From: a bacterium
GTDB lineage: Bacteria > Omnitrophota > Gorgyraeia > Duberdicusellales > 4484-171
NCBI GenBank assembly: GCA_021796115.1
Contig: JAJYOP010000007.1
Location: 6,867 to 70,866, forward strand
DNA length: 64,000 nt
Direction of reading: 5' to 3'
The notes under the pieces: generated by a model
Told to the model about the DNA's origin: nothing
Seen by the model: only the letters and a program-made list of their open reading frames with translations
Database searches by the model: none
Made by a program: the position numbers and the translations under genes
Shown: positions 1,452 to 64,000 of the stretch, one piece after another
Layout of the letters: each line of letters starts with the position of its first letter
Numbering within the stretch: position 1 is the stretch's first letter

Positions 1452-1479
1452 TTGACACAAAGCAAACAAGAGGTATAAT
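1452..1479 (+). promoter_or_regulatory. sigma70-type promoter (TTGACA-N16-TATAAT), would give a ~300-nt recA leader
   Basis: TTGACA 1452-1457, TATAAT 1474-1479, read directly; located 35 nt after plsY stop. Confidence 0.55.
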
Positions 1480-1786
1480 CCTATGTTATATAGGGTAATA
1501 TAATATTATGAAATTCCAAGCTCCAAGCACCAACCCTTCGACTCGTTTTCACTCATTCAGGGTTGTCCTGAGCGAAGCCGAAGGACAAATTTCAAACAAA
1601 TTACAAATCTCAAATTCCAATGACCAAAACTTTAAGTTTGAACGTTTGGTCATCGGATATTGTCCGCCACTGATATATTTTTATATGTGGGCGACTTCGC
1701 CTCTGGCAGAGAATTTGTTTGTGATTTGAAAGTTGGGATTTGGATTTTTTATTCGTGATTATGTGCATATAAAAAGGGAGGTAACG

Positions 1787-2973: not shown

Positions 2974-3037
2974 CGATTACGCATTTTTTCGGTGCTGTTG
3001 CTTGAAAAAATGCTATCTCATTAAAGGAGGTAGCCGC

Positions 3038-5059: not shown

Positions 5060-7699
5060 ATGAAATCCAACGAGTTACGCAAAAAATATTTAAAATTTTT
5101 CGCGAAGAAAAATCACAAGATTTTTCCTTCAGACAGCCTTATCCCTGACGATCCAAGCGTGCTTTTTACGCCGGCAGGGATGAATCAATTTAAATCCTAC
5201 TTTTTGGGCGAAAAGACCGATGTTAAGCGGGTAACATCTTCCCAGAAATGCCTGCGCGCCGGCGACCTTGATGAAGTCGGCCGCACGCCGTACCATCACA
5301 CTTTTTTTGAAATGCTCGGGAATTTTTCTTTCGGCGATTATTTTAAACGGGAAGCCATCCAATTTGCCTGGGAATTCCTGTCTTGCGAATTAAACATGAA
5401 GGAAAAGGATATTTGGATTTCCGTTTACAAGGATGATAATGAAGCGTATACGATATGGAAAAATGAAATTGGCATACCGGCACAAAAAATAGTAAAACTT
5501 GGCGAAGATAAAAATTTCTGGCCGGCAAACGCACCGACAAACGGCCCCGATGGCCCTTGCGGTCCATGCTCAGAAATATTTTTTGACCGAGGCTCTAGCG
5601 TTGGCTGCGGTAAGTCTACCTGTAGCCCAGCCTGCGGCTGCCCGCGTTTTGTTGAATTCTGGAACCTGGTTTTTACCCAGTTTAACCGCCAGGGTGTAAA
5701 TAATTTAAAACCATTGCCGCAGAAAAATATCGATACTGGCATGGGCCTTGAGAGAATGGCTGCGATATTACAGGGTAAAGTTTCGAATTTTGAAATCGAC
5801 ATCCTTGAACCGGCAGTTACCTTTGTTGTAAAATTTCTTAAAGCAGATATCAGTAACCCCAGAGATAAAAGTTTCGTTAATGCCATAGTTGACCACGCAA
5901 GAGCTGCAACTTTTGCAATTTGTGACGGCGTTTATCCTTCAAATGAAGATCGAGGCTATGTTATCAGGAAAATTATCAGAAAAGCTTTGTACCATGCGCA
6001 TATTTTAGCCAAGAAAGAAGCGTTTTTATATAGAATGGTGGAATTATATGCCGAACTCATGCAGGAACCATACCCTGAAATCGGCTCAAAGAAAAACGTA
6101 ATTGCCAAAGTCATACGCACAGAAGAAGATAAATTCATTTCTAGTTTAAAAGATGCTGAATCGCAATTTTTCCTGATTGCCAAAAATCTGGAAAAAAATA
6201 AGAGCGATACGGTTCTAGCAGGGGATGTATTTAAATTGTATGACACTTATGGCCTTCCGCTTGAGCTGACCAAAGAAATGGCAGCAAGATCTTTGCTTAA
6301 AATTGATGAAAACGGGTTCAAAAAACTTCTTAGCATTCAGCAAGAGCGTTCAAGAAAAAGCAGTATGTTTGACGAAAATATATTTAAGGCAGAGGGTATA
6401 ATTTTTAAAGAAACAACGGAATTTACAGGTTATGGCGAAAGCGAGATTAAAACGAAAATCCTGCATATGGTAAAGCTTGAGGCGGACAATGTTTCAAAGA
6501 GCGCCGAAGTAAAAGAGTTAGACACCGGCGAAGAGGGGGTAATTGTTTTAGATAAAACATGTTTTTATCCGGAAGGTGGCGGCCAATTAACCGATAAAGG
6601 GAAGATTTCTACGAAAGACGGAGAATTTTTAGTCGATAAAGTTTTTCGCAGCGCGCACGCTATCCTTCATAAAGGGAAAGTTACCAGAGGAAAAATTTCT
6701 AAAACCACAGTTCACGGTTCGATAGATTTACAAAGGCGCCAGGCATTGAAAAGAGCGCACACAGCTACGCATCTGCTTCAGGCTGCCCTGCGCAAAGTCC
6801 TCGGCGAGCATGTTATGCAGCAAGGCTCATTAGTTGATGAAGACCGTCTTCGTTTTGACTTTACTCATTTTAAGGCGCTTGCTGAAGAGGAATTAAAACG
6901 CGTGGAAGATATTGTTAACGGGTTTGTGCTTGATTCAGACAAGATAATTAAGGAAGAACTTTCTTACAAAGAGGCAAAATCCCGCGGTGCGCTTGCATTT
7001 TTTAAGGATAAATATAAAGATACCGTCCGCGTAGTTTCTATAGGAAGTTACAGCAAAGAGCTCTGTGGCGGCACACACCTTGATTTGACTTCCGAGGCAG
7101 GTACGTTCATGATAGTTAGCGAGTCGTCAATTGCCAGCGGCATAAGAAGAATTGAGGCAATAACCGGAAAAAAGGCTTACGAAAAAATTAAGGAATATAA
7201 AAATATTCTTTTGAATTTATCTGAAAAGGTAAAATGTCCTGTCGAAGAACTCATAAATTACTTTGAAAAACAGGAAAAAGATTTAAAAGATGCCAGAGCG
7301 GCTCTTTCTCTTAACGAAAAGCAAAACATCTCAGCTAAACTTAAAGAGGCATTGCAATCCAAAAAAGAAATCAACGGGATAGACTATCTGGCTTATGAAT
7401 TGAAAAATACCAGCGGAACAGGGCTCATCGAAGCTTCGGATATATTAAGAAAAGAAATTCCGGAATTATTCATTCTGCTTATTTCTGAGGCTAACGGGAG
7501 AAATGTCTTTGTCTGTTCGGTAACCAAGGCCCTCCTTGAGAAGGATATCAGTGCCGCAAAATTCGTTTCCTCGTATAAAGACGAATTACAACTTCGGGGC
7601 GGTGGCAAAGACGCGCTTGTTCAGGGAGTCATAACTAACAGGCTAGAGGATTTTTTAGTAAAAGCGGAAAACTGTATCGTTAAATTTTTGACAAAATAA
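5060..7699 (+). CDS. alaS: alanine--tRNA ligase
   Basis: 879 aa; class II AlaRS N-terminal core (FTPAGMNQFK, RAGDLDEVG), editing-domain motifs HTATHLL and CGGTHL. Confidence 0.97.
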   Translation: MKSNELRKKYLKFFAKKNHKIFPSDSLIPDDPSVLFTPAGMNQFKSYFLGEKTDVKRVTSSQKCLRAGDLDEVGRTPYHHTFFEMLGNFSFGDYFKREAIQFAWEFLSCELNMKEKDIWISVYKDDNEAYTIWKNEIGIPAQKIVKLGEDKNFWPANAPTNGPDGPCGPCSEIFFDRGSSVGCGKSTCSPACGCPRFVEFWNLVFTQFNRQGVNNLKPLPQKNIDTGMGLERMAAILQGKVSNFEIDILEPAVTFVVKFLKADISNPRDKSFVNAIVDHARAATFAICDGVYPSNEDRGYVIRKIIRKALYHAHILAKKEAFLYRMVELYAELMQEPYPEIGSKKNVIAKVIRTEEDKFISSLKDAESQFFLIAKNLEKNKSDTVLAGDVFKLYDTYGLPLELTKEMAARSLLKIDENGFKKLLSIQQERSRKSSMFDENIFKAEGIIFKETTEFTGYGESEIKTKILHMVKLEADNVSKSAEVKELDTGEEGVIVLDKTCFYPEGGGQLTDKGKISTKDGEFLVDKVFRSAHAILHKGKVTRGKISKTTVHGSIDLQRRQALKRAHTATHLLQAALRKVLGEHVMQQGSLVDEDRLRFDFTHFKALAEEELKRVEDIVNGFVLDSDKIIKEELSYKEAKSRGALAFFKDKYKDTVRVVSIGSYSKELCGGTHLDLTSEAGTFMIVSESSIASGIRRIEAITGKKAYEKIKEYKNILLNLSEKVKCPVEELINYFEKQEKDLKDARAALSLNEKQNISAKLKEALQSKKEINGIDYLAYELKNTSGTGLIEASDILRKEIPELFILLISEANGRNVFVCSVTKALLEKDISAAKFVSSYKDELQLRGGGKDALVQGVITNRLEDFLVKAENCIVKFLTK

Positions 7700-7708
7700 A
7701 GATGTTAT

Positions 7709-7782
7709 CGCGGATGCAAACGAATGGTTACGGATGTCACGGATTAATCCGTTGAATCCGCTATAATCCGTATGAATCCGTG
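7709..7782. promoter_or_regulatory. phased CGGAT x4 / ATCCG x4 word array containing TATAAT, upstream of hisD
   Basis: CGGAT/CGAAT at 7711, 7721, 7731, 7740; ATCCG at 7747, 7756, 7766, 7776; TATAAT 7762-7767; hisD ATG 7801. Confidence 0.6.
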
Positions 7783-7800
7783 TTATAAAAAAATAAAGCT

Positions 7801-9054: not shown

Positions 9055-9603
9055 ATGAAAAAAAGATCCATAGGTGTTACTATATTCGGCTGGTGGTGTA
9101 TTATTTGCGGAGCATTAGGAATTTTTAGCTTCCCCATAATATTACTGATGGCAAAATTGCCTCCAAGCTATATGTATCCGAATAATATTTTTATAGGACA
9201 GTGCTCGAATATTTTTTATATCCTCTATTTATCTATAGCCACCATTGCGAATTTAGTTGCCGGAATAGGCCTTCTTAAATTAAAATCGTGGGCAAGGAAA
9301 CTGGTAATCATTCTTTGCTTGGCAGGGATGGTGTACAGTATTTCCTTTTCCGTTAAAATGATGATGAACTCTTCGCAATTCATAGAGGCATCATTGTCAG
9401 CCAACGCCCTGCCGAAAAATAGTTCGCCAGGAACAATAGAAGCGATGAAAGCATTTATGCAAGTTATTCTCGTTGGTTCCATGGTTGTAGGGATATCAAT
9501 TGGCATAGGTTTCCTTATCTTTATTATCTGGTTTTTTAACCGCAAAAGCGTAGTAGAACAATTCGAAGTCGATAATAAAGTCTCAGCCATGGAACAGAAA
9601 TAA
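9055..9603 (+). CDS. hypothetical integral membrane protein inserted in the his cluster
   Basis: 182 aa, 4-5 predicted TM helices, RBS AGGAG upstream; no recognisable motif. Confidence 0.55.
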   Translation: MKKRSIGVTIFGWWCIICGALGIFSFPIILLMAKLPPSYMYPNNIFIGQCSNIFYILYLSIATIANLVAGIGLLKLKSWARKLVIILCLAGMVYSISFSVKMMMNSSQFIEASLSANALPKNSSPGTIEAMKAFMQVILVGSMVVGISIGIGFLIFIIWFFNRKSVVEQFEVDNKVSAMEQK

Positions 9604-14213: not shown

Positions 14214-14345
14214 TAAGGAAACAATAGGATATTAAAAACTGCAGTAACTAACCGTTTGATTAATTTTCTTAAATATGGTTTTTTCAAATATAATGTCTAT
14301 CTTAAAATGAATAGACACGCTTATCTGTTAGCAATCCAGAGAGTT

Positions 14346-14405
14346 AGGTGATTTATAGACAAAAAATAACGGACAAATTGGACAAATTTCGCGAGGAAAT
14401 CACCT
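14346..14405. repeat. hairpin/word element (AGGTGATTT ... AAATCACCT) with GACAAA words
   Basis: AGGTGATTT 14346-14354 is the reverse complement of AAATCACCT 14397-14405. The loop carries GACAAA at 14358, 14372, 14381. The ACGGACAAATT..GCTAAT part recurs at 29096-29136. Confidence 0.55.
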
Positions 14406-14423
14406 CTCTAAACCGCTAATTTC

Positions 14424-14452
14424 TTGATAATCACCACGTTTAGCCCTATAAT
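14424..14452 (+). promoter_or_regulatory. near-consensus sigma70 promoter TTGATA-N17-TATAAT
   Basis: TTGATA 14424-14429, TATAAT 14447-14452. Confidence 0.6.
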
Positions 14453-14458
14453 ACATAC

Positions 14459-14584
14459 CTGTAGACAAGGAGAGGTTTCCCTTCGTGGCATACGAGTGGG
14501 ACCCCAGTCTTTCTCGTCTCCAAGTGAGAGGAGAGAAGGTTAAGGCCCTGGTTACTTAACGTGACCAGGGCCTTAATTTTTGTT
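14459..14584 (+). ncRNA. candidate ~125-nt small RNA (promoter- and terminator-bounded copy of a dispersed repeat)
   Basis: Starts ~7 nt after TATAAT and ends at a 14-bp GC-rich hairpin plus U-run. No ATG/RBS inside. The 5' part is homologous to 52513-52578. Confidence 0.45.
14542..14584 (+). terminator. strong intrinsic terminator
   Basis: AAGGCCCTGGTTAC (14542-14555) / GTGACCAGGGCCTT (14561-14574), loop TTAAC, then AATTTTTGTT. Confidence 0.8.
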
Positions 14585-14588
14585 GCGC

Positions 14589-14696
14589 CATATTTCGGAG
14601 TTTCGAAAAGAATAAAGAAAGCCTTCCAATCTTCTAAAAGCTGTTTGTAGAGAAGATATCCTCGTAGGTAATATTTCTGCTCGTCCAAGGAAAACC
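14589..14696. repeat. dispersed intergenic repeat, family 1 (copy b)
   Basis: CCATAT..TTCGAAA..ATAAAGAAAGCC..AGCTGT..GAGA.GA..CCTCGT aligns at roughly 70-75 % (hand count) with 18920-19030. Confidence 0.6.
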
Positions 14697-14747
14697 GTTA
14701 CATCTATGCTAACAATCTATAGGTAATTAATAATATTTAACAATACG

Positions 14748-14775
14748 GGAACTTTTTTTATTTTGGATTGTCTAA
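14748..14775 (+). promoter_or_regulatory. ECF (RpoE-like) promoter GGAACTT-N16-TCTAA
   Basis: GGAACTT 14748-14754, GTCTAA 14770-14775; ~60-85 nt upstream of the first ORF of the operon that ends with an ECF sigma/anti-sigma pair. Confidence 0.55.
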
Positions 14776-14857
14776 TATAAAAGAACCAAGAAACAAAATA
14801 TAAAGGGCTCAAATTATATTAAAAAGGAGGCAAAATGAAAACATCAAGGTACTTATC

Positions 14858-15145
14858 ATGGACAATTTGTTAGTATCAATGGTTTGTGCTGCGTCGGTAT
14901 TATTACCAAAAATTTATGCTCAAAATATAGAAGATAATAACACAGATAATACTTTTAATAACGGCGATATGAACGAACAAAATCAAATAGTTGATTCAAG
15001 CCAAGACGTAAACGATACCTTAAGTAATCTTGAGACTATTAAAAATGATCAGCAGAAGAATACAGACGAAAACACAAAAGATAGCGATAATTCAGACAAA
15101 AATAACTCAAGCGATAATACAGGTAGCCAAGACGATTCAAAATAA
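14858..15145 (+). CDS. small secreted Asp/Asn-rich low-complexity protein (start uncertain, possible frameshift with ATG 14835)
   Basis: 95-aa ORF with hydrophobic N-terminus ending ..KIYA/QN; the only good RBS (AAGGAGG) serves ATG 14835 in another frame that stops after 12 codons. Confidence 0.4.
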   Translation: MDNLLVSMVCAASVLLPKIYAQNIEDNNTDNTFNNGDMNEQNQIVDSSQDVNDTLSNLETIKNDQQKNTDENTKDSDNSDKNNSSDNTGSQDDSK

Positions 15146-15267
15146 AAAACCATACATCTATAATGAGTTACCTAATAGTTAGTATTTTACTATTGCTTTA
15201 TATCGCACTTGTCTAAAAAACGCTTTTTCTCAAAACAGTTAGGCAAACATTATTAATGGGGGTAAAC

Positions 15268-17105: not shown

Positions 17106-17669
17106 ATGCAAAATATTACCAGGGAAACTTTGATAAAAGCTCAAAAGAGGGATCTTAGGGCATTTGAGGATATCTATAAAGAAAGTTCCGGGTTTGTTTA
17201 CAACGTTGCCTTGCGTATTTTGAATAACAGGCAGGATTCTGAAGAGGTTGTACAGGAAGTTTTCTTAAGCATTTATCATAATCTTAAAAATTTCCGTTTT
17301 CATTCTTCTTTTAAAACCTGGGTTTATAGGATTACGGTAAATTGCGCAATCAATCATATTAATAAAATGACTAAAGAAAAAAATAAATTAAAGGAATACA
17401 GTAATAGTTTGATTCAAACAACAGATAAATTTCAAGCACCGCAGATAGAAAAGATAGACACCGCACAGGAGGAAATGATCAATTCGCTCCTGGGAGCCCT
17501 CGATCCGGATCAAAGAACCTGCATAGTTTTAAGAAGCTTTGAGGGATTAAGTTACAAGGAGATATCTGACACACTGAAAATCAATATCAATACCGTGCGT
17601 ACCAGGTTAAAGAGAGCAAGAGAGAAATTATTGAACCTTAGAAAAGAGGTAGCAGGAAATGAATTGTAA
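17106..17669 (+). CDS. ECF-type RNA polymerase sigma factor
   Basis: 187 aa; sigma70 region 2 (VQEVFLSIYHNLKNF..WVYRITVNCAINH) and region 4 HTH (LSYKEISDTLKININTVRTRLKRAREKL). Confidence 0.9.
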   Translation: MQNITRETLIKAQKRDLRAFEDIYKESSGFVYNVALRILNNRQDSEEVVQEVFLSIYHNLKNFRFHSSFKTWVYRITVNCAINHINKMTKEKNKLKEYSNSLIQTTDKFQAPQIEKIDTAQEEMINSLLGALDPDQRTCIVLRSFEGLSYKEISDTLKININTVRTRLKRAREKLLNLRKEVAGNEL

Positions 17670-18660: not shown

Positions 18661-18919
18661 TAGTTTTAAGCAAATCATAATCATGAAAAATGTACCAGTT
18701 AATTTCCATTATTTTTATCAAGTGGCGAATAAAATACTATTGTATTCTTTGCTATTTGTTTTTAGCTTTTTTGTTATTTCTTTAATTTCTTCACGCCAGA
18801 ATAGGTTTTCTTGACTATATTAAAGAAGCGCTGATTATTAATTAATAGCTGACTATTAATAGATTGCTATGTTACCCTCTAGCCTTTAATGCCAGCATCA
18901 AGAGTGCCTCTTTATTGTA

Positions 18920-19030
18920 CCATATCTCTGTTATTCGAAATGGATAAAGAAAGCCATTCTAACTTTCAAAGAGCTGTAAACGGAGAGGAGAGACCCTCGT
19001 GCGATAGTCTGCCCTGACGAGAATCACCTC
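18920..19030. repeat. dispersed intergenic repeat, family 1 (copy c)
   Basis: CCATATCTCTGTTATTCGAAATGGATAAAGAAAGCC..AGCTGTAAACGGAGAGGAGAGACCCTCGTGCGATAGTCTGCCCTGACGAGAATCACCTC. Aligns with 14589-14696 and 43718-43781. Followed by the palindromic hairpin TCATTCTTCTTTTC/GAAAAGAAATAGAATGA and then TATAAT. Confidence 0.6.
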
Positions 19031-19108
19031 ATCATTCTTCTTTTCGAAAAGAAATAGAATGATATAATTAAAAAATCACAAATGAAGATATTCTAACTCA
19101 TAAAATTT

Positions 19109-19978: not shown

Positions 19979-22210
19979 ATGAGAAGAATTCTTTTGTTTG
20001 TTTTGCCAATTCTTATTATTGTTTCTGCGGCGTTTACCATTTTTGGTATCTTCCAAGTTCGCTTTGAGGAGGAGAAACTGCTTGATGATCTGCAACGTAA
20101 AAGCCGAATCGTTGCCGAAAGTATGGATATCGTAGTGAAGCAGGTTCTGGAAAACAACGATCTCAAAACCGCCAATTATCTTGTTGAGAGGTTCGAGGCT
20201 CGTGAACGATTGCAGGGTTGTGTCATATATAACAAAGAAGGGCAGATAATTGCAATTACCAAACGATTTACCGACTGGGAAAACAAACCGAAGCCATATA
20301 TTCAAGAAGTATTAAATAATAAGACTGCCCGCGGCGAGCTGGAAAATTTTAAAGATTACACAGTATACAGTTATATTCTTCCTATAACCGATAGCAAAGA
20401 GCAGGTTTTGGGTTTAGTTGAAGTCATCAATGATACTTCCTATGTGTTTACGCGTATAGCCGATCTTTGGAAACGCCTAAGTATTACCTTAATCGTTATA
20501 GTTATAACCATTATAATTATCTCAATTTTTCTACATAGGCAGATTTTCGTTTTACCGATAGAGCGCCTTACGGAATGGTTTAACCGTTTTCAGAAAGGTG
20601 AGACAGACGCAAAGCACCCCATAAAAGAAAAAGGGGAGTTAGGCAAACTGGCCAGCGAGGTTGAGCAGGTTGCCTTGAGTTTACGCGTCGCCCGCAGAAC
20701 GGTTTCTGATGAAGCAGCCGCGCGTTTTAATAAAACAGAAATGTGGACAGAAGCCAAATTGCGGGATTTAATTCATGCAAAATTAGGCGACAACGCTTTT
20801 TTTGTAGTATCAAACCGCGAGCCTTACATGCATGTTGTCGATGAAGTTCTGGGTTTTGTAGAATGTATCAGGCCGGCAAGCGGCGTTGTAACTGCGATAC
20901 ACCCTATTTTAGCTGCCTGCGGCGGGACGTGGATTGCCCACGGCGGGGGTAGCGCCGATAAGCAGTTCGTTAATTCTAAAGATAAACTGGGCGTTCCTCC
21001 GGAAAATAATCAATATATTTTAAAACGGATCTGGCTTTCTAAAGCGGAAGAACAAGGGTATTATTACGGTTTTTCCAATGAAGGCCTCTGGCCGCTTTGC
21101 CATAATACCCATACACGGCCAATTTTTCGGGAAAGCGATTGGCAAACTTATAAAGAAGTGAATCAGAAATTTGCCAAAAGCATTTTGGAAGAATTACCAA
21201 AGAAAAATCCTTTCGTGTTTATCCAGGATTATCACTTTACACTTTTGCCAAAAATGATTAAAGAAAAACGGCCGGAGGCAATTGTTGCATTATTCTGGCA
21301 TATCCCCTGGCCTACGCCTGAATCGTTTTCGGTCTGTCCATACCAAGAAGAAATTTTAAGCGGCATGCTCGGCTGTGATTTGATAGGGTTTCACGTGCAG
21401 AGCCATTGCAATAATTTTCTTGATACCGCAAACCGGCTGCTTGAATCGCGCGTGGATACGGAAAAATTCAGCGTGGTGCGTTTCGGTAAAGAAACCTTCG
21501 TCAGGGCTTTTCCTATAAGCATAGATTATCATATTGGCAAAGAGCAAAAAATTGATCATGAACAATTAGAGAAAATCAGGAAAGAATTAAAATTGGAAGG
21601 AAAGATAGTCGGCGTAGGCGTAGACAGGATAGATTATACAAAGGGCATCGCCGAAAAGCTGATGGCCGTAGACAGGTTTTTAGAAAAATATCCGCAGTAT
21701 AAAAACCACTTTATTTTTATACAGATAGGCGCGCCAAGCCGTACCCACATAAAACGCTACCATGACTTAATTGCCGAAATTGATGAGCTGGTTGATAGGA
21801 TCAATTGGAAACATCAGGATGGGGAATGGAAGCCCATAGTATATCTTAAACGGCACTTTTCTCCGGAAGAAATCATACCTTATTATGCGCTTTCCGATCT
21901 TTGTATCGTGAGCTCTCTTCATGATGGCATGAATCTCGTTGCCAAAGAGTATGTCGCCAATAAGAAAGATTTGTCGGGAATTTTGATTTTAAGCCGTTTC
22001 ACTGGCGCAGCGAGGGAATTAACGGACGCTATCCAGATAAATCCCTATTCCATAGAAGAATTTTCCGACAGCATAAAATTTGCAGTTGAAATGCCTCTTG
22101 AAGAAAAAAAGCGGCGCATGGAAAACATGCAAAATATTATTTCAGAAAATAATATTTATCGCTGGGCTGGAAGCATTATCACTGAGTTAACTGCTTTAAA
22201 AAAGATTTAA
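19979..22210 (+). CDS. otsA: trehalose-6-phosphate synthase (GT20) fused to N-terminal TM-sensor-TM-HAMP module
   Basis: 743 aa. TM1 res 4-25, ~140-aa extracytoplasmic segment, TM2 LSITLIVIVITIIIISIFL, HAMP-like PIERLTEWFNRF..LGKLASEVEQVA. The GT20 core then begins at FFVVSNREPY, with WPLCH, IQDYHF, GVDRIDYTKGI, LHDGMNLVAKEY. Confidence 0.9.
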   Translation: MRRILLFVLPILIIVSAAFTIFGIFQVRFEEEKLLDDLQRKSRIVAESMDIVVKQVLENNDLKTANYLVERFEARERLQGCVIYNKEGQIIAITKRFTDWENKPKPYIQEVLNNKTARGELENFKDYTVYSYILPITDSKEQVLGLVEVINDTSYVFTRIADLWKRLSITLIVIVITIIIISIFLHRQIFVLPIERLTEWFNRFQKGETDAKHPIKEKGELGKLASEVEQVALSLRVARRTVSDEAAARFNKTEMWTEAKLRDLIHAKLGDNAFFVVSNREPYMHVVDEVLGFVECIRPASGVVTAIHPILAACGGTWIAHGGGSADKQFVNSKDKLGVPPENNQYILKRIWLSKAEEQGYYYGFSNEGLWPLCHNTHTRPIFRESDWQTYKEVNQKFAKSILEELPKKNPFVFIQDYHFTLLPKMIKEKRPEAIVALFWHIPWPTPESFSVCPYQEEILSGMLGCDLIGFHVQSHCNNFLDTANRLLESRVDTEKFSVVRFGKETFVRAFPISIDYHIGKEQKIDHEQLEKIRKELKLEGKIVGVGVDRIDYTKGIAEKLMAVDRFLEKYPQYKNHFIFIQIGAPSRTHIKRYHDLIAEIDELVDRINWKHQDGEWKPIVYLKRHFSPEEIIPYYALSDLCIVSSLHDGMNLVAKEYVANKKDLSGILILSRFTGAARELTDAIQINPYSIEEFSDSIKFAVEMPLEEKKRRMENMQNIISENNIYRWAGSIITELTALKKI

Positions 22211-43781: not shown

Positions 43782-43912
43782 AAAATTTTCGAATCGCTAA
43801 CAACATAGAAATTATTTATCCTAGAGGAGCACTTTTATTTGAAGGAAGCAGCCTGATTGTTATAAGAGACCTCTGGAAAACTACCTTGAAACCGCCAAAA
43901 CACTAAATCACT

Positions 43913-44014
43913 GCCTGCCGGCAGGTCGCAAAGCCGCAAACGTAAAGATGCAAAATATGCAAAGAAATTTTTGCGCTTTTGCGATTAGTATTTTTGCGCT
44001 ACTTTGTGTTTTGC
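43913..44014. repeat. GCAAA x4 then TTTGC x4 word array preceded by 12-bp palindrome CCTGCCGGCAGG
   Basis: Palindrome 43913-43924; GCAAA at 43928, 43936, 43950, 43959; TTTGC at 43970, 43978, 43993, 44010. Confidence 0.6.
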
Positions 44015-50064: not shown

Positions 50065-50085
50065 AATATCATACATACCTCATTT

Positions 50086-50293
50086 TTCTGAACATTCCCC
50101 GGAATTTAAGGGTATCTTGGCATAACTCTATGTAAAACAAGCGATAACGAAGATAAAAATCTATGATTCTTCAGGGGGCGGAGGCAAACGGATTTTAGCG
50201 GATGCAGACGGATAAAAAACCTATAATTATCCGTATGCATCCACAATCATCCGTGACATCCGTCCTTAAAAATAAAAAAATGGGGAAGCTCCA
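50086..50293 (+). repeat. 208-bp cassette, copy A (direct repeat of 55992-56199)
   Basis: Hand alignment: 205/208 identical, no indels (differences at 50119, 50237, 50265). Contains CGGAG/CGGAT at 50179, 50189, 50199, 50209; TATAAT at 50222-50227; ATCCG/ATCCA at 50229, 50239, 50249, 50258. Confidence 0.95.
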
Positions 50294-50393
50294 GACCTCA
50301 TTTTTTCCTTTAAAAATCTAAACTATGTGGTAATATACATAATTTAGGTTTTATCATTCTTGGATTATTTTGCATCAATATAATTATGCCGAT

Positions 50394-52432: not shown

Positions 52433-52512
52433 ATGTTATCGGAAACTGCAAGCAGATATTAGGCCATTTTTGAATCTCTAAATAACTTCCCGGCGAATGC
52501 CTCCTTGCCAAA

Positions 52513-52605
52513 TTTAGCCCTACCCTACATACCTGTAAAACGGGAAAGCTTTCTCCTTGTGATATATGAGTGGGATCCATATTTTTGCCTTTGGCAAAAA
52601 TATGG
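52513..52605. repeat. dispersed repeat family 1 (copy f) plus 13-bp perfect hairpin
   Basis: TTTAGCCCTACCCTACATACCTGTAAAACGGGAAAGCTTTCTCCTTGTGATATATGAGTGGGATCC aligns (~75 %, hand count) with 14439-14503 but carries TACCCT where that copy has TATAAT. Hairpin CCATATTTTTGCC/GGCAAAAATATGG at 52577-52605. Confidence 0.6.
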
Positions 52606-52713
52606 AACAATTGCGCAATAGATAATAAAAGATATGGCAAAGCTCAATCGCGGTCTATTCTTTATTGCTCGATTGTTCAAACTGCCCTTAGGCGGGTTCA
52701 GTTAAAAAAAGAC

Positions 52714-52747
52714 GGTATGGTTTTTTTATTAAAAATAGAACCATACC
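52714..52747. terminator. AT-rich hairpin, possible bidirectional terminator
   Basis: GGTATGGTT (52714-52722) / AACCATACC (52739-52747) with T7 / A5 runs inside. Confidence 0.4.
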
Positions 52748-53036
52748 CTTGATTGTTAAATAATAATTAAACATTGCGTTTCCAGATTTGTAATTCCAAA
52801 TTAATTCTCTGGCTGAAAACTATAAGTTATGTTAATATCACAAATATAAAAAGGAAAAGTACTGTATTTATACCGGTTGGCATTCTTATTCCGCCTTTGA
52901 AATATAAAACCTTGGTTATGGTAAAATTGGCGTTTGTTTTAGCCTATAACAGCCAGAAAAATCAAATTCATAGTTAATTCTTTCTGCTTTGCGTGTTACT
53001 CTATCGAAAAGAACTGATTATTATAAGGTAATTAAA

Positions 53037-55753: not shown

Positions 55754-55991
55754 AAAGACGATAAGCTGGCCCTTGACAAGATTCAGCGTTATTTTTATGC
55801 TGTAAGAAAAAGGAATGTTTTATCGGACAGGATTACCTTTGTTCAGAAAAAACTTTATTGCTTTTTTCATGGATTCGAAAAAGATGATTAGCACTAAGAC
55901 CAGCATGACAATGGTAAGGATGGCGTTTAAATTTCCCTGGAAAGTGTGTTTAGGCAGGTAATTATTTTATGTTATCAAGGCCAGCCACAAA

Positions 55992-56199
55992 TTCTGAACA
56001 TTCCCCGGAATTTAAGGGTATCTTTGCATAACTCTATGTAAAACAAGCGATAACGAAGATAAAAATCTATGATTCTTCAGGGGGCGGAGGCAAACGGATT
56101 TTAGCGGATGCAGACGGATAAAAAACCTATAATTATCCGTATACATCCACAATCATCCGTGACATCCGTCATTAAAAATAAAAAAATGGGGAAGCTCCA
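55992..56199 (+). repeat. 208-bp cassette, copy B (direct repeat of 50086-50293)
   Basis: 205/208 identical to copy A. TATAAT 56128-56133 flanked by CGGAK at 56085, 56095, 56105, 56115 and ATCCR at 56135, 56145, 56155, 56164. Confidence 0.95.
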
Positions 56200-56290
56200 A
56201 TCACAAATTTTCTTGAAAATTACCACAGTTAGTCCTATAATAACCTCCTTATACGCCTGGAGATTTTGTCAAATATTAAAAGGAAGTGCA

Positions 56291-57664
56291 ATGACAGGAG
56301 TAGAGAAGTATTCGCACAAAATTGTAAGAAAAATAAGATTTAGAATACCGGATATTCCCGGAGCCCTTGGCACACTTGCACTTGAGCTGGGATTAGAAGA
56401 CGTAACTTTAGGTGACATAACAAAAATCCAGCTTACCTCTAATTATATCGTAAGAGACATTACGGCCTTCTTTGATGACGAAAGTCATTTCAGCAGGGCC
56501 ATTGCTGCCGTAAAGAAACTCAAAGGTTATAAGATATTGCAGATACAAGATGAAGTTTTGAATTTGCATAAAGGCGGAAAAATTGAGGTGAAGCCCAGGG
56601 TTAAGGTCGACACGCTTACGGATTTGCGCATGATTTATACTCCTGGCGTTGCCCAGGTTTGTAATTATATCGTTGCCAATCCCGGTGCGGCAAAAAAATA
56701 TACTTCGATAGGTAATACTGTTTGTATCGCAACCAATGGCTCAGCGGTTCTCGGGTTGGGCGATATTGGCGTTTTGGCGGCAATGCCGGTGATGGAAGGA
56801 AAGTCTATCATTTTGAATAAAATGGCCAATGTAAGTTGCGTTCCGTTGCTTACAAAAAGCGATGATGCCGATACAATCGTCAATACGCTTAGTTGTGTAG
56901 CAGAAACATTTGGCGCAATCATGATAGAGGACATTAAAGCGCCGCTTTGTTTTGAGGTCGAGAAAAAATTACAGGAAAAAGTAAAAATTCCCGTATTCCA
57001 CGATGATCAACATGGAACAGCAACAGTTATATTGGCGGCTTTAATAAAAGCTCTCGGCATTACTAGGAAAAGAAAAGAAAAAGTAAATATCGTTATAAAC
57101 GGGGCCGGTGCCGCCGGGATCGCCACGACAAAACTGCTTTTAGGATACGGTTTTAAGAATATAACTCTTTGTGATAGGTCCGGGGCAATTTATCAGACAA
57201 GAACCGATGGCATGAACGAATATAAAAAAGAAATAGCAAAACTTACCAATAAACGCAAAGAGCAAGGAAGCCTTGAGAATGTCATAAAAGGCAAGGATAT
57301 ATTTATCGGTTTATCAGGCCCAGGGCTGGTTACGAAAGGTATGGTAAGAAACATGAACAAGCCACCGGTTGTCTTTGCTTTGGCTAATCCCATACCGGAA
57401 ATCTGGCCAAAAGACGCTGGAGAGGCCGGTGCGGCCATAGCTTTAGATGGCAGGACGATAAATAATGCGCTTGTTTTTCCAGGGCTTATCCGCGGGACAC
57501 TTGACGCAAATGCTTCTGCAATAACCGAGAAGATGAAATTTTCTGCCGCCGAAATGATAGCATCGCTGGCCGGCAAAAACGAAATCGTGCCTAACTTTAT
57601 GAACACGGCTGTGCACAAAAATGTGGCTCGGGCTGTATTCTTCTCTGCCGGTAAATCTAAATAG
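56291..57664 (+). CDS. NAD(P)-dependent malic enzyme with N-terminal ACT-like domain
   Basis: Start ATG 56291 behind AAAGGAAG (track start 56108 runs through the repeat). ACT-like IRFRIPDIPGALGTLALELG; then HKGGKIEV..IYTPGVAQVC, GSAVLGLGDIG, MEGKS, FHDDQHGTA, NGAGAAG. Confidence 0.92.
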   Translation: MTGVEKYSHKIVRKIRFRIPDIPGALGTLALELGLEDVTLGDITKIQLTSNYIVRDITAFFDDESHFSRAIAAVKKLKGYKILQIQDEVLNLHKGGKIEVKPRVKVDTLTDLRMIYTPGVAQVCNYIVANPGAAKKYTSIGNTVCIATNGSAVLGLGDIGVLAAMPVMEGKSIILNKMANVSCVPLLTKSDDADTIVNTLSCVAETFGAIMIEDIKAPLCFEVEKKLQEKVKIPVFHDDQHGTATVILAALIKALGITRKRKEKVNIVINGAGAAGIATTKLLLGYGFKNITLCDRSGAIYQTRTDGMNEYKKEIAKLTNKRKEQGSLENVIKGKDIFIGLSGPGLVTKGMVRNMNKPPVVFALANPIPEIWPKDAGEAGAAIALDGRTINNALVFPGLIRGTLDANASAITEKMKFSAAEMIASLAGKNEIVPNFMNTAVHKNVARAVFFSAGKSK

Positions 57665-62194: not shown

Positions 62195-63298
62195 ATGAGA
62201 AAATTTATTTTTATTCTACTGGCTTTTATTTTATTTTTCATTTCTCCCACGACTCTTCTACCTTCAGCGGAAAAAAGTAATCCATCTTTGCATGTCGCAA
62301 GTTTCTGGAACAAAGTTAATAATACAATCGTGCAATGCGGATTATGCCCCCGCAGATGTGTTCTTGCTAATGGCCAGAGAGGATTTTGCACCGCGCGTAT
62401 AAATAAAGGCGGCACACTTTATACCCTGGCGTATAACAATCCGGTAACTCTACAGGTTGACCCTATCGAAAAAAAACCATTTTTCCATGTAATGCCCGGC
62501 GAAAGCGCTTTTTCGCTTGCTGTTGCCGGATGCAACATGCGCTGTCTCTTTTGCCAGAACTGGCAGATATCCCAATCCCTGCCGGATGAAACAAGCAATT
62601 ATAATTTAACCCCCAAAGAAGTGGTAAATCTTGCCATAAAAAGTAAATCCAAATTCATCGCCTATACCTATACCGAACCGACAATCTTTTATGAGTATAT
62701 GTTGGACATAGCAAAAATAGCCAGGCAAAAAGGTTTGCGTAACGTTATGCATACCTGCGGCTATATCAATCGCGAGCCGCTGGTTAAGCTCCTTAAATAT
62801 ATGGATGCGGTGAATGTAGATTTGAAAAGTTTTGACAGTGCTTTTTATCATAAAATGGGCACGATGGCAGAATTGCAGCCGGTGCTTGATACTTTAAAAA
62901 CTATAAAAGCCGAAGGCGTATGGCTTGAAGTAACTAATTTGCTTATCCCCGGAGAAAATGATAGCCCTGAACAGATTCGTAAAATGTGCGCCTGGATAAA
63001 AGAAAATCTTGGCGACGAGGTGCCGTTACATTTCAGTCGTTTTAGGCCGGCTTTCAGGCTTGCCAATCTTCCGCCGACACCGGTTGAGAAAATGGAAGAA
63101 GCATATAAAATTGCAAAAGAGGCAGGATTGAAATATGTTTACCTAGGGAACCTTCCCGGCGCTGCAGAGGAAAGTACTTACTGCCCCAAATGCAACAAAT
63201 TGTTAATTTCGCGTTCAGGATATATTATAAATGAAATCAATATCAAGGACGGCCGCTGCAAATTCTGCGGTTACAAGATAGCCGGTATTTGGAAATGA
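62195..63298 (+). CDS. AmmeMemoRadiSam-system type radical SAM enzyme
   Basis: CNMRCLFCQNW (CxxxCxxC), N-terminal CGLCPRRC, C-terminal CPKC..CKFCG; N-terminal hydrophobic segment. Confidence 0.8.
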   Translation: MRKFIFILLAFILFFISPTTLLPSAEKSNPSLHVASFWNKVNNTIVQCGLCPRRCVLANGQRGFCTARINKGGTLYTLAYNNPVTLQVDPIEKKPFFHVMPGESAFSLAVAGCNMRCLFCQNWQISQSLPDETSNYNLTPKEVVNLAIKSKSKFIAYTYTEPTIFYEYMLDIAKIARQKGLRNVMHTCGYINREPLVKLLKYMDAVNVDLKSFDSAFYHKMGTMAELQPVLDTLKTIKAEGVWLEVTNLLIPGENDSPEQIRKMCAWIKENLGDEVPLHFSRFRPAFRLANLPPTPVEKMEEAYKIAKEAGLKYVYLGNLPGAAEESTYCPKCNKLLISRSGYIINEINIKDGRCKFCGYKIAGIWK

Positions 63299-63325
63299 TT
63301 GCGCTAATGCGGTATTTAATCTTAG

Positions 63326-63430
63326 GTTACGGAAGTTACGAAAGTTATATAGGCTACGAAGGTTGCACTAAATCGCAAAGTTTTAAATGTAACTTTCGTA
63401 GTTTGCCGTAACCTGGGTAACCTTTGTAAC
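63326..63430. repeat. GTTAC-type words x5 then GTAAC-type words x5 at ~9-bp phasing
   Basis: GTTAC/GTTAT/GCTAC/GTTGC at 63326, 63335, 63344, 63353, 63362; GTAAC/CGTAG at 63389, 63397, 63408, 63417, 63426; next ATG 63444. Confidence 0.6.
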
Positions 63431-63443
63431 CTCATAATAAATT

Positions 63444-64000
63444 ATGCTTATCGCGCTGCTACAGGTTTTTGCCATTGGATTCAGTCTCGGGTTTACCGGC
63501 CCGTGCCTTTTTTACTGCCTTCCCGTTATTCTTGCTTTTACTCAAGGGGCCGGCAAAGGTTTTAAAAAATCCTTAACCGATATCCTGATATTTTTCTGCG
63601 GCAGGCTGTTTGCCTATGTAGTGCTTGGCATCCTTGCCGGAATTTCCGGCATATTGCTTCGCAAATTTATTGATTCAAGCTTCAAATTATATCTTAATCC
63701 TTTAGCCGGATTAATCAGTATAGCTCTTGGTATTTTTATTTTGTTGAACAAGGAAGCCGGCCAGGAAAAATGCGAGAGAAAATTGAGTCAAGCCAGCACT
63801 TTTGGGAGCTTGTTCCTGTTTGGTTTTATAATTGGCATAAGCCCTTGTGCGCCGCTACTGGCCTTGCTTTTTGAAATCGCGCTTATTTCGAAGAGCGCAT
63901 TTGGCGGGGCGCTTTATGGCCTGGCTTTTGGTTTAGGCACATTTGTTTCCGGTGTCATTATCGCCGGCGGCTTTATAAAAATATTCAGCCGCCTTCCGGA
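63444..64000 (+). CDS. polytopic membrane protein, DsbD_2/CcdA-like (3' end outside window)
   Basis: Open from ATG 63444 to the window end; TM helices with paired Cys motifs GPCLFYCLP and SPCAPLL; not in ORF track because there is no stop. Confidence 0.5.
   Translation, partial: MLIALLQVFAIGFSLGFTGPCLFYCLPVILAFTQGAGKGFKKSLTDILIFFCGRLFAYVVLGILAGISGILLRKFIDSSFKLYLNPLAGLISIALGIFILLNKEAGQEKCERKLSQASTFGSLFLFGFIIGISPCAPLLALLFEIALISKSAFGGALYGLAFGLGTFVSGVIIAGGFIKIFSRLP

Follow-up and report, generated by a model that had tools for sequence, protein, structure and literature searches.

The question raised by this locus is how two genes that abut in the relatives came to be separated by a short stretch of DNA built from one word repeated at a fixed step, first in direct and then in inverted orientation. 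We analysed a stretch of 64,000 nucleotides (nt), hereafter the window, which is a piece of an Omnitrophota chromosome with about 40% G+C in which nearly all genes lie on the + strand. The 145-nt spacer element at positions 63299-63443 of the window was named E7. The earlier note on this DNA had described GTTAC-like words followed by GTAAC words at 63326-63430, and on reading the sequence all these words and coordinates are correct. We propose, with a probability of about one in two, that E7 is an old member, decayed in part, of a GTTAC family of non-coding palindromic elements, with arms that would be arrays of protein-binding words. Such an element would resemble transposable elements of the miniature inverted-repeat kind (MITEs) and REPINs, the latter being doublets of repetitive extragenic palindromes (REPs) that form hairpins and are mobilised by RAYT transposases. 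The features of the locus are the following:

62195-63298, + strand: radical SAM gene of the AmmeMemoRadiSam type (open reading frame (ORF), homologues and Pfam PF04055; stop codon TGA at 63296-63298)
63299-63443, + strand: lineage-specific 145-nt spacer with E7 (gene tables and DNA of 10 relatives)
63314-63442, strand not assigned: full extent of the imperfect palindrome, with outer arms 63314-63347 and 63409-63442
63324-63368, + strand: left arm, five 9-bp units of consensus GTTACGAAA, with words at 63326, 63335, 63344, 63353 and 63362
63367-63388, strand not assigned: AT-rich centre or loop of 22 nt, ACTAAATCGCAAAGTTTTAAAT, from sequence reading
63389-63432, + strand: right arm, five inverted units, with GTAAC at 63389, 63408, 63417 and 63426 and GTAGT at 63398 (CGTAG at 63397)
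63295-63411, + strand: upstream ORF of 38 codons (ORF 63289-63411; translation beginning MIALMRYLILGYGSYESYIGYEG...)
63444-64000, running off the window, + strand: gene of a DsbD_2 family membrane protein (PF13386 in the gene table of contig L001)

The first part of the answer is that the spacer is an insertion. The junction was compared in 10 relatives whose radical SAM proteins are 64-83% identical to that of the window, the four closest by their gene tables and six by their DNA. None of the 10 has a spacer: the end of the radical SAM gene and the start of DsbD_2 either overlap (ATGA or TAATG) or are separated by no more than 3 nt. The closest DsbD_2 homologues (219 aa) begin with M-x-IALLQVF and have the same length as the window protein, whose N-terminus is MLIALLQVFAIGF; the ATG at 63444 is therefore ancestral and the extra DNA lies upstream of it. 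For this reason, the idea that E7 was the source of the DsbD_2 start codon was rejected. The best named homologues of the product of 62195-63298 are radical SAM enzymes of the AmmeMemoRadiSam system from Candidatus Omnitrophota. The same 145 nt are carried by the ENA contig L001 (145/145 identity), whose gene table places spermine-synthase-like and Fer4 genes downstream of DsbD_2, and this second record, together with the imperfection of the arms, argues against an assembly artefact. The similarity between the spacer and its flanks is at chance level, so that no local source sequence is evident for E7. Two more specific candidates were also rejected: a 9-bp target duplication flanking E7 (ATTGCGCTA / ATCGCGCTG) matches at 7/9 positions, which is within chance, and a derivation of the left flank from the 5' end of DsbD_2 or the 3' end of the radical SAM gene (CGGTATTT at 63283/63310, TCTGCGGTTAC / TCTTAGGTTAC) does not rise above shuffles.

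The second part concerns the build of the inserted DNA. The words of the left arm are GTTAC (63326), GTTAC (63335), GTTAT (63344), GCTAC (63353) and GTTGC (63362), spaced by exactly 9 bp, and the corresponding units are, in order, GTTACGGAA, GTTACGAAA, GTTATATAG, GCTACGAAG and GTTGCACTA. The right arm contains one step of 10 bp and its remaining steps are of 9 bp. That this two-armed, phased architecture is not random, as the earlier note had assumed, was confirmed in several ways. Tandem Repeats Finder reports a period of 9 in both arms (63326-63347 and 63408-63432), five phased words with at most one mismatch and one exact period were obtained in 0/5000 shuffles of the left arm, and the autocorrelation at lag 9 reaches 0.61 in the left arm (0/5000 shuffles) and 0.54 in the right arm (4/5000). 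The 34-nt arms are 74% complementary and the inner 19-nt arms 79%. The spacer folds with a minimum free energy of -47.9 kcal/mol, against -28.7 +/- 3.3 for shuffles (z = -5.85), in a structure that pairs 63314-63318 with 63438-63442 and includes everything between.

A k-mer scan with shuffled controls, which the earlier note had asked for, also supported the architecture. We searched for exact 5-mers present at least twice per arm and at least five times in total, with a spacing of 8-12 and a centre of at most 80 nt. The window contains four such loci (CGGAT at 7731, 50189 and 56095; GTTAC at 63326) against 0 in 40 dinucleotide shuffles, and 80 loci of other bacteria (1.23 Mb) contain five against 0.7 expected; two-armed phased arrays are thus about 15 times denser in the window than in other bacterial DNA. 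The period differs by family, being 9 for GTTAC, 10-11 for CGGAT and 8-9 for GCAAA.

The third and most informative observation is a homologous array at another locus. When E7 was searched with nhmmer against 2.34 Mb of related and unrelated loci, the only match was L083:6886-6948 (E = 0.0034 on the + strand; the same palindrome is also matched weakly by E7 on the - strand, E = 1.1), and the reciprocal search of the window returned only 63324-63401 (E = 1.7e-5). The L083 array lies at 6887-6950 between plsY and recA, a locus different from that of E7. It consists of five words at exact 9-bp spacing, a centre ending in ...AATTTAAAT and then GTAAC-CTTC-GTAAC, and it is like E7 in word, period, centre and orientation to the downstream gene. 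The two copies have in common the TTTAAAT of the centre and the first right-arm units (TTTAAATGTAAC-N-TTCGTA). A remnant, TTCAAATATAATTTTCGTAAC, is found in L082 at the orthologous site upstream of recA, and no further GTTAC array was seen in the 2.4 Mb of loci scanned.

The comparison of units between the two copies reveals where the constraint lies. Over 17 units with consensus GTTACGAAA, the deviations per position number 1, 2, 1, 1 and 1 in the word and 8, 8, 5 and 11 in the spacer; a spread as uneven as this arose in 2/200,000 random allocations (p about 1e-5; 0.011 with left arms only). The word is thus about five times better conserved than the four spacer positions within the units. 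The short right arm of L083 offers no partner to the three outer words of its left arm; these are nevertheless exact, with differing spacers (AAAT, GAAA, GTAG and GAAT), so hairpin formation alone is not a sufficient explanation. Pairing alone would allow compensatory drift of the units, and neutral decay would affect all nine positions alike; what is seen fits recognition of the word itself at a fixed spacing. A conserved word with variable spacers points to sequence-specific recognition by a putative binding protein. Judged from the two copies, GTTAC marks a family whose members occupy other loci in other genomes, and E7 is no private product of slippage.

These results bear directly on the possibility that E7 was made on the spot, slippage giving a 9-bp tandem array, template switching (fold-back copying) adding the inverted arm, and neutral growth and decay following, without any trans-acting factor or mobility. 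Short-range template switching is documented (for example in PMC7954356 and PMC13100816) as a process by which inverted repeats are made more uniform and longer. Near-perfect hairpins whose arms are tandem repeats (units of 8-12 bp, private to each) do occur sporadically in contigs of unrelated phyla, namely Bacteroidota, Terriglobia, Anaerolineae and Acidobacteriota (L043:16750-16880 and 2600-2730; L052:2580-2660; L077:19395-19480; L069:18209-18310). One of them is nested with two different units, and some look young. Moreover, E7 has no target duplication, and the periods vary among arrays (8-11 bp), as arbitrary slippage units would. Independent origins would not, however, yield a homologue at a non-homologous locus that agrees in unit, period, centre and orientation; a word some five times better kept than its spacers is not what neutral decay predicts; and the chance-level similarity to the flanks leaves no evident local source. 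We therefore regard an origin on the spot as unlikely. The earlier note had proposed that absence of the arrays from syntenic spacers of close relatives would mark them as neutral products of slippage; the array is indeed absent from 10/10 syntenic junctions, but the homologous copy elsewhere and the constraint on the word mean that the inference to neutral slippage fails.

The stability of the fold suggests another explanation, in which RNA would be the working form: the hairpin between the two cistrons would be a processing site (for RNase III or a similar enzyme), a 3'-end stabiliser or an inefficient terminator, and would uncouple the two genes. Beside the z-score given above, this is favoured by a difference between strands, the sense fold having -48.8 kcal/mol against -34.2 for the antisense fold (14.6 better), with 9 G-U pairs against 3; all arm mismatches within E7 words are G-U on the sense strand. 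The short upstream ORF can be cited in the same sense. Its ATG shares nucleotides with the stop codon of the radical SAM gene (ATGA), just as the radical SAM and DsbD_2 genes themselves overlap by 4 nt (ATGA) in two relatives, P0003 and P0005. Through the left arm the frame reads as a tripeptide repeat rich in Gly/Ser-Tyr, GYGSYESYIGYEG; it then closes 33 nt ahead of the DsbD_2 start, at the TAA of the third GTAAC word, which is the first of three in-frame TAA codons that the GTAAC words supply. Translation of these 38 codons could open the hairpin and hand ribosomes over to DsbD_2.

Against a working RNA stand the lack of a U-tract (the hairpin is followed by CTCATAATAAATT) and of any terminator-like site at the hairpin in a scan of 62900-63700. 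No match above noise was found in Rfam: at the gathering score Rfam 15 has none in the whole window, and at E <= 1 it returns only sub-threshold hairpin RNAs of eukaryotes, namely Drosophila rox1 and two miRNA precursors, at 17-22 bits, where the cut-offs are 58-90. The asymmetry between sense and antisense folding is seen in E7 and in the GCAAA hairpin and is not consistent over 19 elements, so that a general strand asymmetry was rejected as evidence for RNA function. The G-U bias of E7 may reflect either selection at the RNA level or strand-biased C-to-T mutation, the latter being possible because the GC skew is positive over the whole window. Lastly, a structural RNA needs pairing, not one word per unit, and the unpaired outer words of L083 are conserved. 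As an account of origin, a working RNA is to our mind improbable; it is rather an effect of the insertion and, as such, is compatible with a decayed mobile palindrome.

The fourth part of the answer comes from the neighbourhood, where other spacers behave as MITEs do. The recA-htrA-recX-alaS-hisD region of the window is syntenic in contigs L094 (~78% nucleotide identity), L082, L083, L101 (~70%). Its recA-htrA spacer (E2) measures 171 nt and contains a perfect inverted repeat of 27 bp, where the L094 spacer has about 6 nt. Four further occurrences of the E2 ends, with 90-93% identity, lie in the distant Omnitrophota contig L012 (15322-15437 and 16533-16649). The htrA-recX spacer (E3) measures 126 nt where the genes overlap in L094, and L082 has at this junction a CGAAT array in place of the unrelated E3. 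E4 is a CGGAT array at 7702-7789 in the 101-nt alaS-hisD spacer, where L082 and L101 have an ATGA overlap instead. L083 and L084 have homologues of E4 at this junction, and L082 has one elsewhere; they match it over its full length (~70-80%) and hold a variable GC-rich mini-hairpin in their centre. A 9-bp direct repeat, AAAATAAAG, brackets E4 (p = 0.01). Two of the elements are located as follows:

2840-2990, no strand stated: E2 element with inverted ends AAATTTAACCCAGCACTTATTTTTG, absent at the L094 junction
50088-50294 and 55994-56201 of the window and L001:11088-11261, no strand stated: 207-nt element with 13-bp imperfect inverted ends CTGAACATTCCCC ... GGGGAAGCTCCAG, three copies with 98-99% identity

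The 207-nt element gives the clearest case. Its two complete copies are those of the window, contig L001 breaking inside the third, and they are flanked by target duplications of 11 bp (50077-50087 / 50295-50305, p = 0.003) and 8 bp (55986-55993 / 56202-56209, p = 0.013). They bracket a 5.7-kb segment with TauE, DUF1634 and TPR genes. The CGGAT hairpin 50188-50262, with TATAAT in its loop, sits inside the first copy. The malic-enzyme start of the public gene table (56186, ATGGGGAAGCTCCA) falls inside the second; the same start exists in the other copy, where it opens a frame of only 13 codons, and the true start of the malic enzyme is probably further downstream, for example at the ATG near 56291. 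Miniature insertion elements are thus demonstrably present at gene junctions of this genome, and the word arrays are among them.

CGGAT or CGAAT arrays are present at three loci of the window, at a fourth in L001 and at six in L082/L083/L084, the relatives also carrying arrays in which every word is CGAAT rather than CGGAT. The earlier note had proposed that at least six spacers of the window follow one rule, each with a word of its own. The rule stands for the GTTAC and CGGAT arrays and for the GCAAA hairpin at 43927-44012, which have one design in common; it does not hold for ATCTGTG, whose words (10272, 10296 and 10306, upstream of a hisH-like gene) are direct repeats only, with no CACAGAT nearby. 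The notion of a private word for each spacer has to be abandoned: the words mark dispersed families, GTTAC being found also in L083, CGGAT/CGAAT at many loci and CACGGAT in viral contigs.

Further sequences of the same neighbourhood were recorded in passing. A GC-rich mini-palindrome, CCTGCCTGCCGGCAGG, occurs with variants at 43911-43925 of the window, at L082:6890-6955, 9450-9470, 17510-17530 and 20790-20810 and at L083:12660-12680; it is often exactly central in CGGAT/CGAAT arrays and once stands alone upstream of recA, and it may be a REP-like, nested element. Upstream of recA, a sigma-70 promoter (TTGACA, 17 nt, TATAAT) is conserved between the window (1452-1480) and L094 (6340-6370). The leader behind it contains different hairpins in the window and in L094, and part of the L094 leader (GCTTGAAAAAATGTTGTGCTCATTAAGGAGGTA) resembles the window sequence upstream of htrA (2975-3012). 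Two pairs of direct repeats of 60-71 nt with 73-75% identity (14434-14504 / 52508-52578 and 14579-14638 / 18911-18970) lie in the ORF-less stretches 14214-15255, 18661-19108 and 52433-52988, and could be non-coding RNAs, leaders or decayed elements.

The arrays of the neighbourhood also allow the idea of a cis-regulatory operator array to be weighed, in which a transcription factor would bind the GTTAC words cooperatively around an internal promoter and control DsbD_2 and the genes downstream, each word family having its own regulator. Phased arrays of short sites are a known mode of action of regulators of the OmpR/PhoB type, MraZ, ribbon-helix-helix proteins and Cox/Apl proteins. A conserved word, variable spacers and a fixed spacing would suit such a regulator, as would the position of the arrays directly upstream of starts (hisD for E4, recA for the L083 array, DsbD_2 for E7) and the TATAAT present within E4 and at the centre of the 50188-50262 CGGAT hairpin. 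However, no sigma-70-like promoter is predicted in the E7 spacer, and conservation of the TATAAT does not extend from E4 to its homologues. At none of the 10 orthologous junctions, in which the two genes are coupled, is the array present, and so it was not part of the ancestral control of DsbD_2. The downstream genes are unrelated (hisD, malic enzyme, recX, recA and DsbD_2), and one and the same junction carries different families in different lineages. The earlier note had suggested matching each word to a nearby regulator, and nothing ties the words to one. An operator array is in our judgement quite improbable as the explanation of E7.

Arrays of similar words were also sought outside the bacteria. 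Pattern scans of viral contigs gave hits far beyond chance, most of the GTTAC hits being coding (repeats of the Gly-Val-Thr type). Non-coding arrays of the exact unit GTTACGAAA or GTTACGAAT, and also of GTTACAAAT (up to 12 units), were found in phage contigs L210, L255, L422 and L424-L428, and some of them are two-armed around AT-rich centres like TATATATA. The two-armed GTTAC array L210:8041-8165 adjoins a Phage_rep_O gene (PF04492, E = 2.7e-16), that of L255:1793-1990 a gene for a VapE-like primase-helicase, and the array of L428 lies between DUF669 and AAA_24 genes; these viral GTTAC arrays are probably the iterons of phage origins. Homology of E7 to them is not demonstrable beyond the word, in a set that was selected by the pattern itself, and they are to be taken as analogues. 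A scan with the centre motif TTAAATGTAACNTTCGTA returned only coding or unrelated sequence.

The ACGGAT word gave a second viral set. Among 142 viral arrays, 24 (20 distinct) possess an inverted arm; their unit is CACGGAT(G/A)A(A), and most of them lie in DNA of 56-67% G+C, where our crude ORF calling is too unreliable for a reading of their gene context. Two-armed arrays in which CACGGAT(G/A)A(A) units, spaced by 10-11 bp, precede ATCCGTG units are found in L298, L306, L307, L345, L353, L356, L366, L379, L399, L402 and others, some contigs holding several of them, and both design and word are those of the CGGAT arrays of the window. The unit resembles the CsrA/RsmE RNA site ACGGAUG. A CsrA-type reading of the CGGAT words was rejected: it does not extend to CGAAT or GTTAC, and the motifs would be buried in the stem.

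With the viral arrays in hand, one may ask whether E7 is itself an iteron-type replication origin, or a fragment of one stranded from a phage, a satellite or a plasmid, whose GTTAC units were bound by an initiator. The non-coding GTTACGAAA/GTTACGAAT arrays of L422 and L424-L428 and the arrays beside replication genes in L210, L255 and L428 speak for this, and so does the plan of E7, five plus five units of period 9 bp around a 22-nt AT-rich centre. The context is that of a chromosome: E7 lies between two housekeeping genes (radical SAM and DsbD_2, the latter followed by the spermine-synthase-like and Fer4 genes), with no phage or plasmid genes around it and no initiator gene nearby. The cumulative GC skew shows no turn anywhere in the window, and the viral arrays, as stated, resemble E7 in the word and were chosen by pattern. 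This origin we hold to be very improbable.

We then compared a decayed mobile palindrome, the explanation that we prefer, with the described classes of elements. The earlier note had named no described class that behaves in this way, and this agrees with our searches. Besides the empty result of Rfam, no blastn match identified E7 as a known plasmid or phage sequence, and the literature search returned no paper with the CACGGAT/ATCCGTG repeat-unit strings of the CGGAT arrays or with the spurious peptide strings, none linking Omnitrophota with palindromic intergenic repeats and none describing such arrays. The nearest published relative that we found is a MITE of Porphyromonas gingivalis that holds an internal minisatellite (PMC4596501; for a review of MITEs, see PMC3184786, which also mentions the REP/REPIN class). 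E7 is like a MITE in being small (145 nt as spacer, about 130-145 nt as element), non-coding (its only ORF is the frame of 38-40 codons through the repeats) and intergenic, in its inverted arms (63314-63347 / 63409-63442) and in its presence or absence at syntenic junctions, with related copies at non-homologous loci. The neighbouring element 50088-50294 goes further, having inverted ends, 8-11-bp target duplications and near-identical copies. E7 differs from MITEs in that it has no detectable target duplication, such as E4 (9 bp) and the 207-nt element (11 and 8 bp) do have, and in that no autonomous partner is known. Each of its arms, instead of one terminal repeat, is a row of five 9-bp units conserved in the 5-nt word only, and the tandem units make up the arms instead of standing between them.

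Other classes are similar in part. With REPINs the elements share the form of extragenic hairpins of about 100 nt made of an inverted short motif, dispersed, lineage-specific and placed between convergent or co-directional genes, and the CCTGCCTGCCGGCAGG mini-palindrome of the clade looks REP-like. A REPIN has one REP per arm, where three to five phased words are found here; the arms of E7 are AT-rich, the copy number is low in the sequence covered, and no Y1 transposase of the RAYT kind was seen among 30 proteins scanned. Phased arrays of sites are known from ParR/parC, omega heptads and P2 Cox boxes, bound by ribbon-helix-helix or winged-helix proteins, and the word is there specific to the cognate protein. 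E7 shares with these, and with iterons, short words at a fixed period of 7-11 bp, direct and inverted blocks and an AT-rich centre, and GTTAC and GTTACGAAA arrays stand beside replication genes in viral contigs. It differs in being a solitary insert of 145 nt between housekeeping genes with no cognate gene beside it, and in having arms complementary enough for one long hairpin, which origins do not require. Finally, some transposon ends contain several subterminal transposase sites (Tn7 with TnsB, Mu with L1-L3/R1-R3, and hAT elements such as Ac and Hermes). Their sites are repeated directly in each end, the ends are mutually inverted, and a deletion derivative retaining only the ends would resemble a two-armed array. 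The known bacterial sites are, however, about 20 bp long and more widely spaced, with target duplications of 5 bp, hAT elements are eukaryotic, and no such transposase is linked to the arrays here. By analogy, E7 would work most like multi-site transposon ends or iteron arrays. In kind we rate it among the miniature palindromic dispersed repeats, and what is new is the architecture of the arms together with a word and a period specific to each family.

The course of events that we propose is as follows. E7 would have entered the junction between the radical SAM gene and DsbD_2, which originally abutted and were translationally coupled. Each arm would be an array of 9-bp units under constraint at the five nucleotides of GTTAC only, and the words, phased on each arm and with the arms inverted, would be reiterated sites for a protein that recognises or mobilises the element, the candidates being a transposase, a recombinase or an initiator-like protein. 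For the host, E7 is probably a tolerated passenger, which separates the two genes, adds a hairpin of about -48 kcal/mol to the operon mRNA and leaves the DsbD_2 start intact; it also brings with it the predicted 38-codon upstream ORF. In a compact genome, junctions are probably the only places where insertions survive, which would explain why the same junctions are struck by different families.

Several observations weigh against this proposal. E7 has no target-site duplication, the longest flanking direct repeat being 5 nt, a length reached in 1041/2000 shuffles. No transposase, integrase or RAYT was detected among the 30 window proteins scanned (about 25 window ORFs lie outside the scan), and no autonomous partner was found. 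E7 is a single copy in 68 kb of this genome, with one full homologue elsewhere, in L083, and the remnant in L082. The binding of a protein is suggested by the pattern of conservation, and the 9-bp period is not a helical repeat. The gap between sense and antisense folds hints at a constraint at the RNA level, and the CGGAT elements at alaS-hisD persist in three lineages, so that such elements may be kept for a host function.

A broader form of the same idea is possible, and we put it forward tentatively: the elements may form an undescribed class of mobile or selfish DNA, whose arms are wholly made of phased "iteron" arrays. Each family would have a word of 5-7 nt, a fixed period (9 bp for GTTAC, 10-11 bp for CACGGAT or CACGAAT) and a filament-forming protein co-evolving with the word. 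Such a class would be shared by Omnitrophota, related bacteria and their viruses, and would prefer the stop/start junctions of compact operons.

The single E7 locus is an old insertion of uncertain activity; it is the pattern at the level of families, extending over Omnitrophota, GC-rich viral contigs and phage replication modules, that is unexpected. If our reading is true, compact Omnitrophota genomes would be colonised at gene junctions by palindromic miniatures whose arms consist wholly of phased words, with a word and a period for each family. For annotation, this means that the elements create spurious ORFs and false starts, as with the malic-enzyme start called at 56186. For operon biology, they would break translational coupling and add very stable hairpins to the mRNA. 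The code of word and period would further predict cognate DNA-binding proteins, which could be found through arrays flanking a gene. Finally, the CACGGAT design in GC-rich viral contigs, together with the GTTACGAAA arrays by phage replication genes, indicates that this principle of recognition may be widespread.

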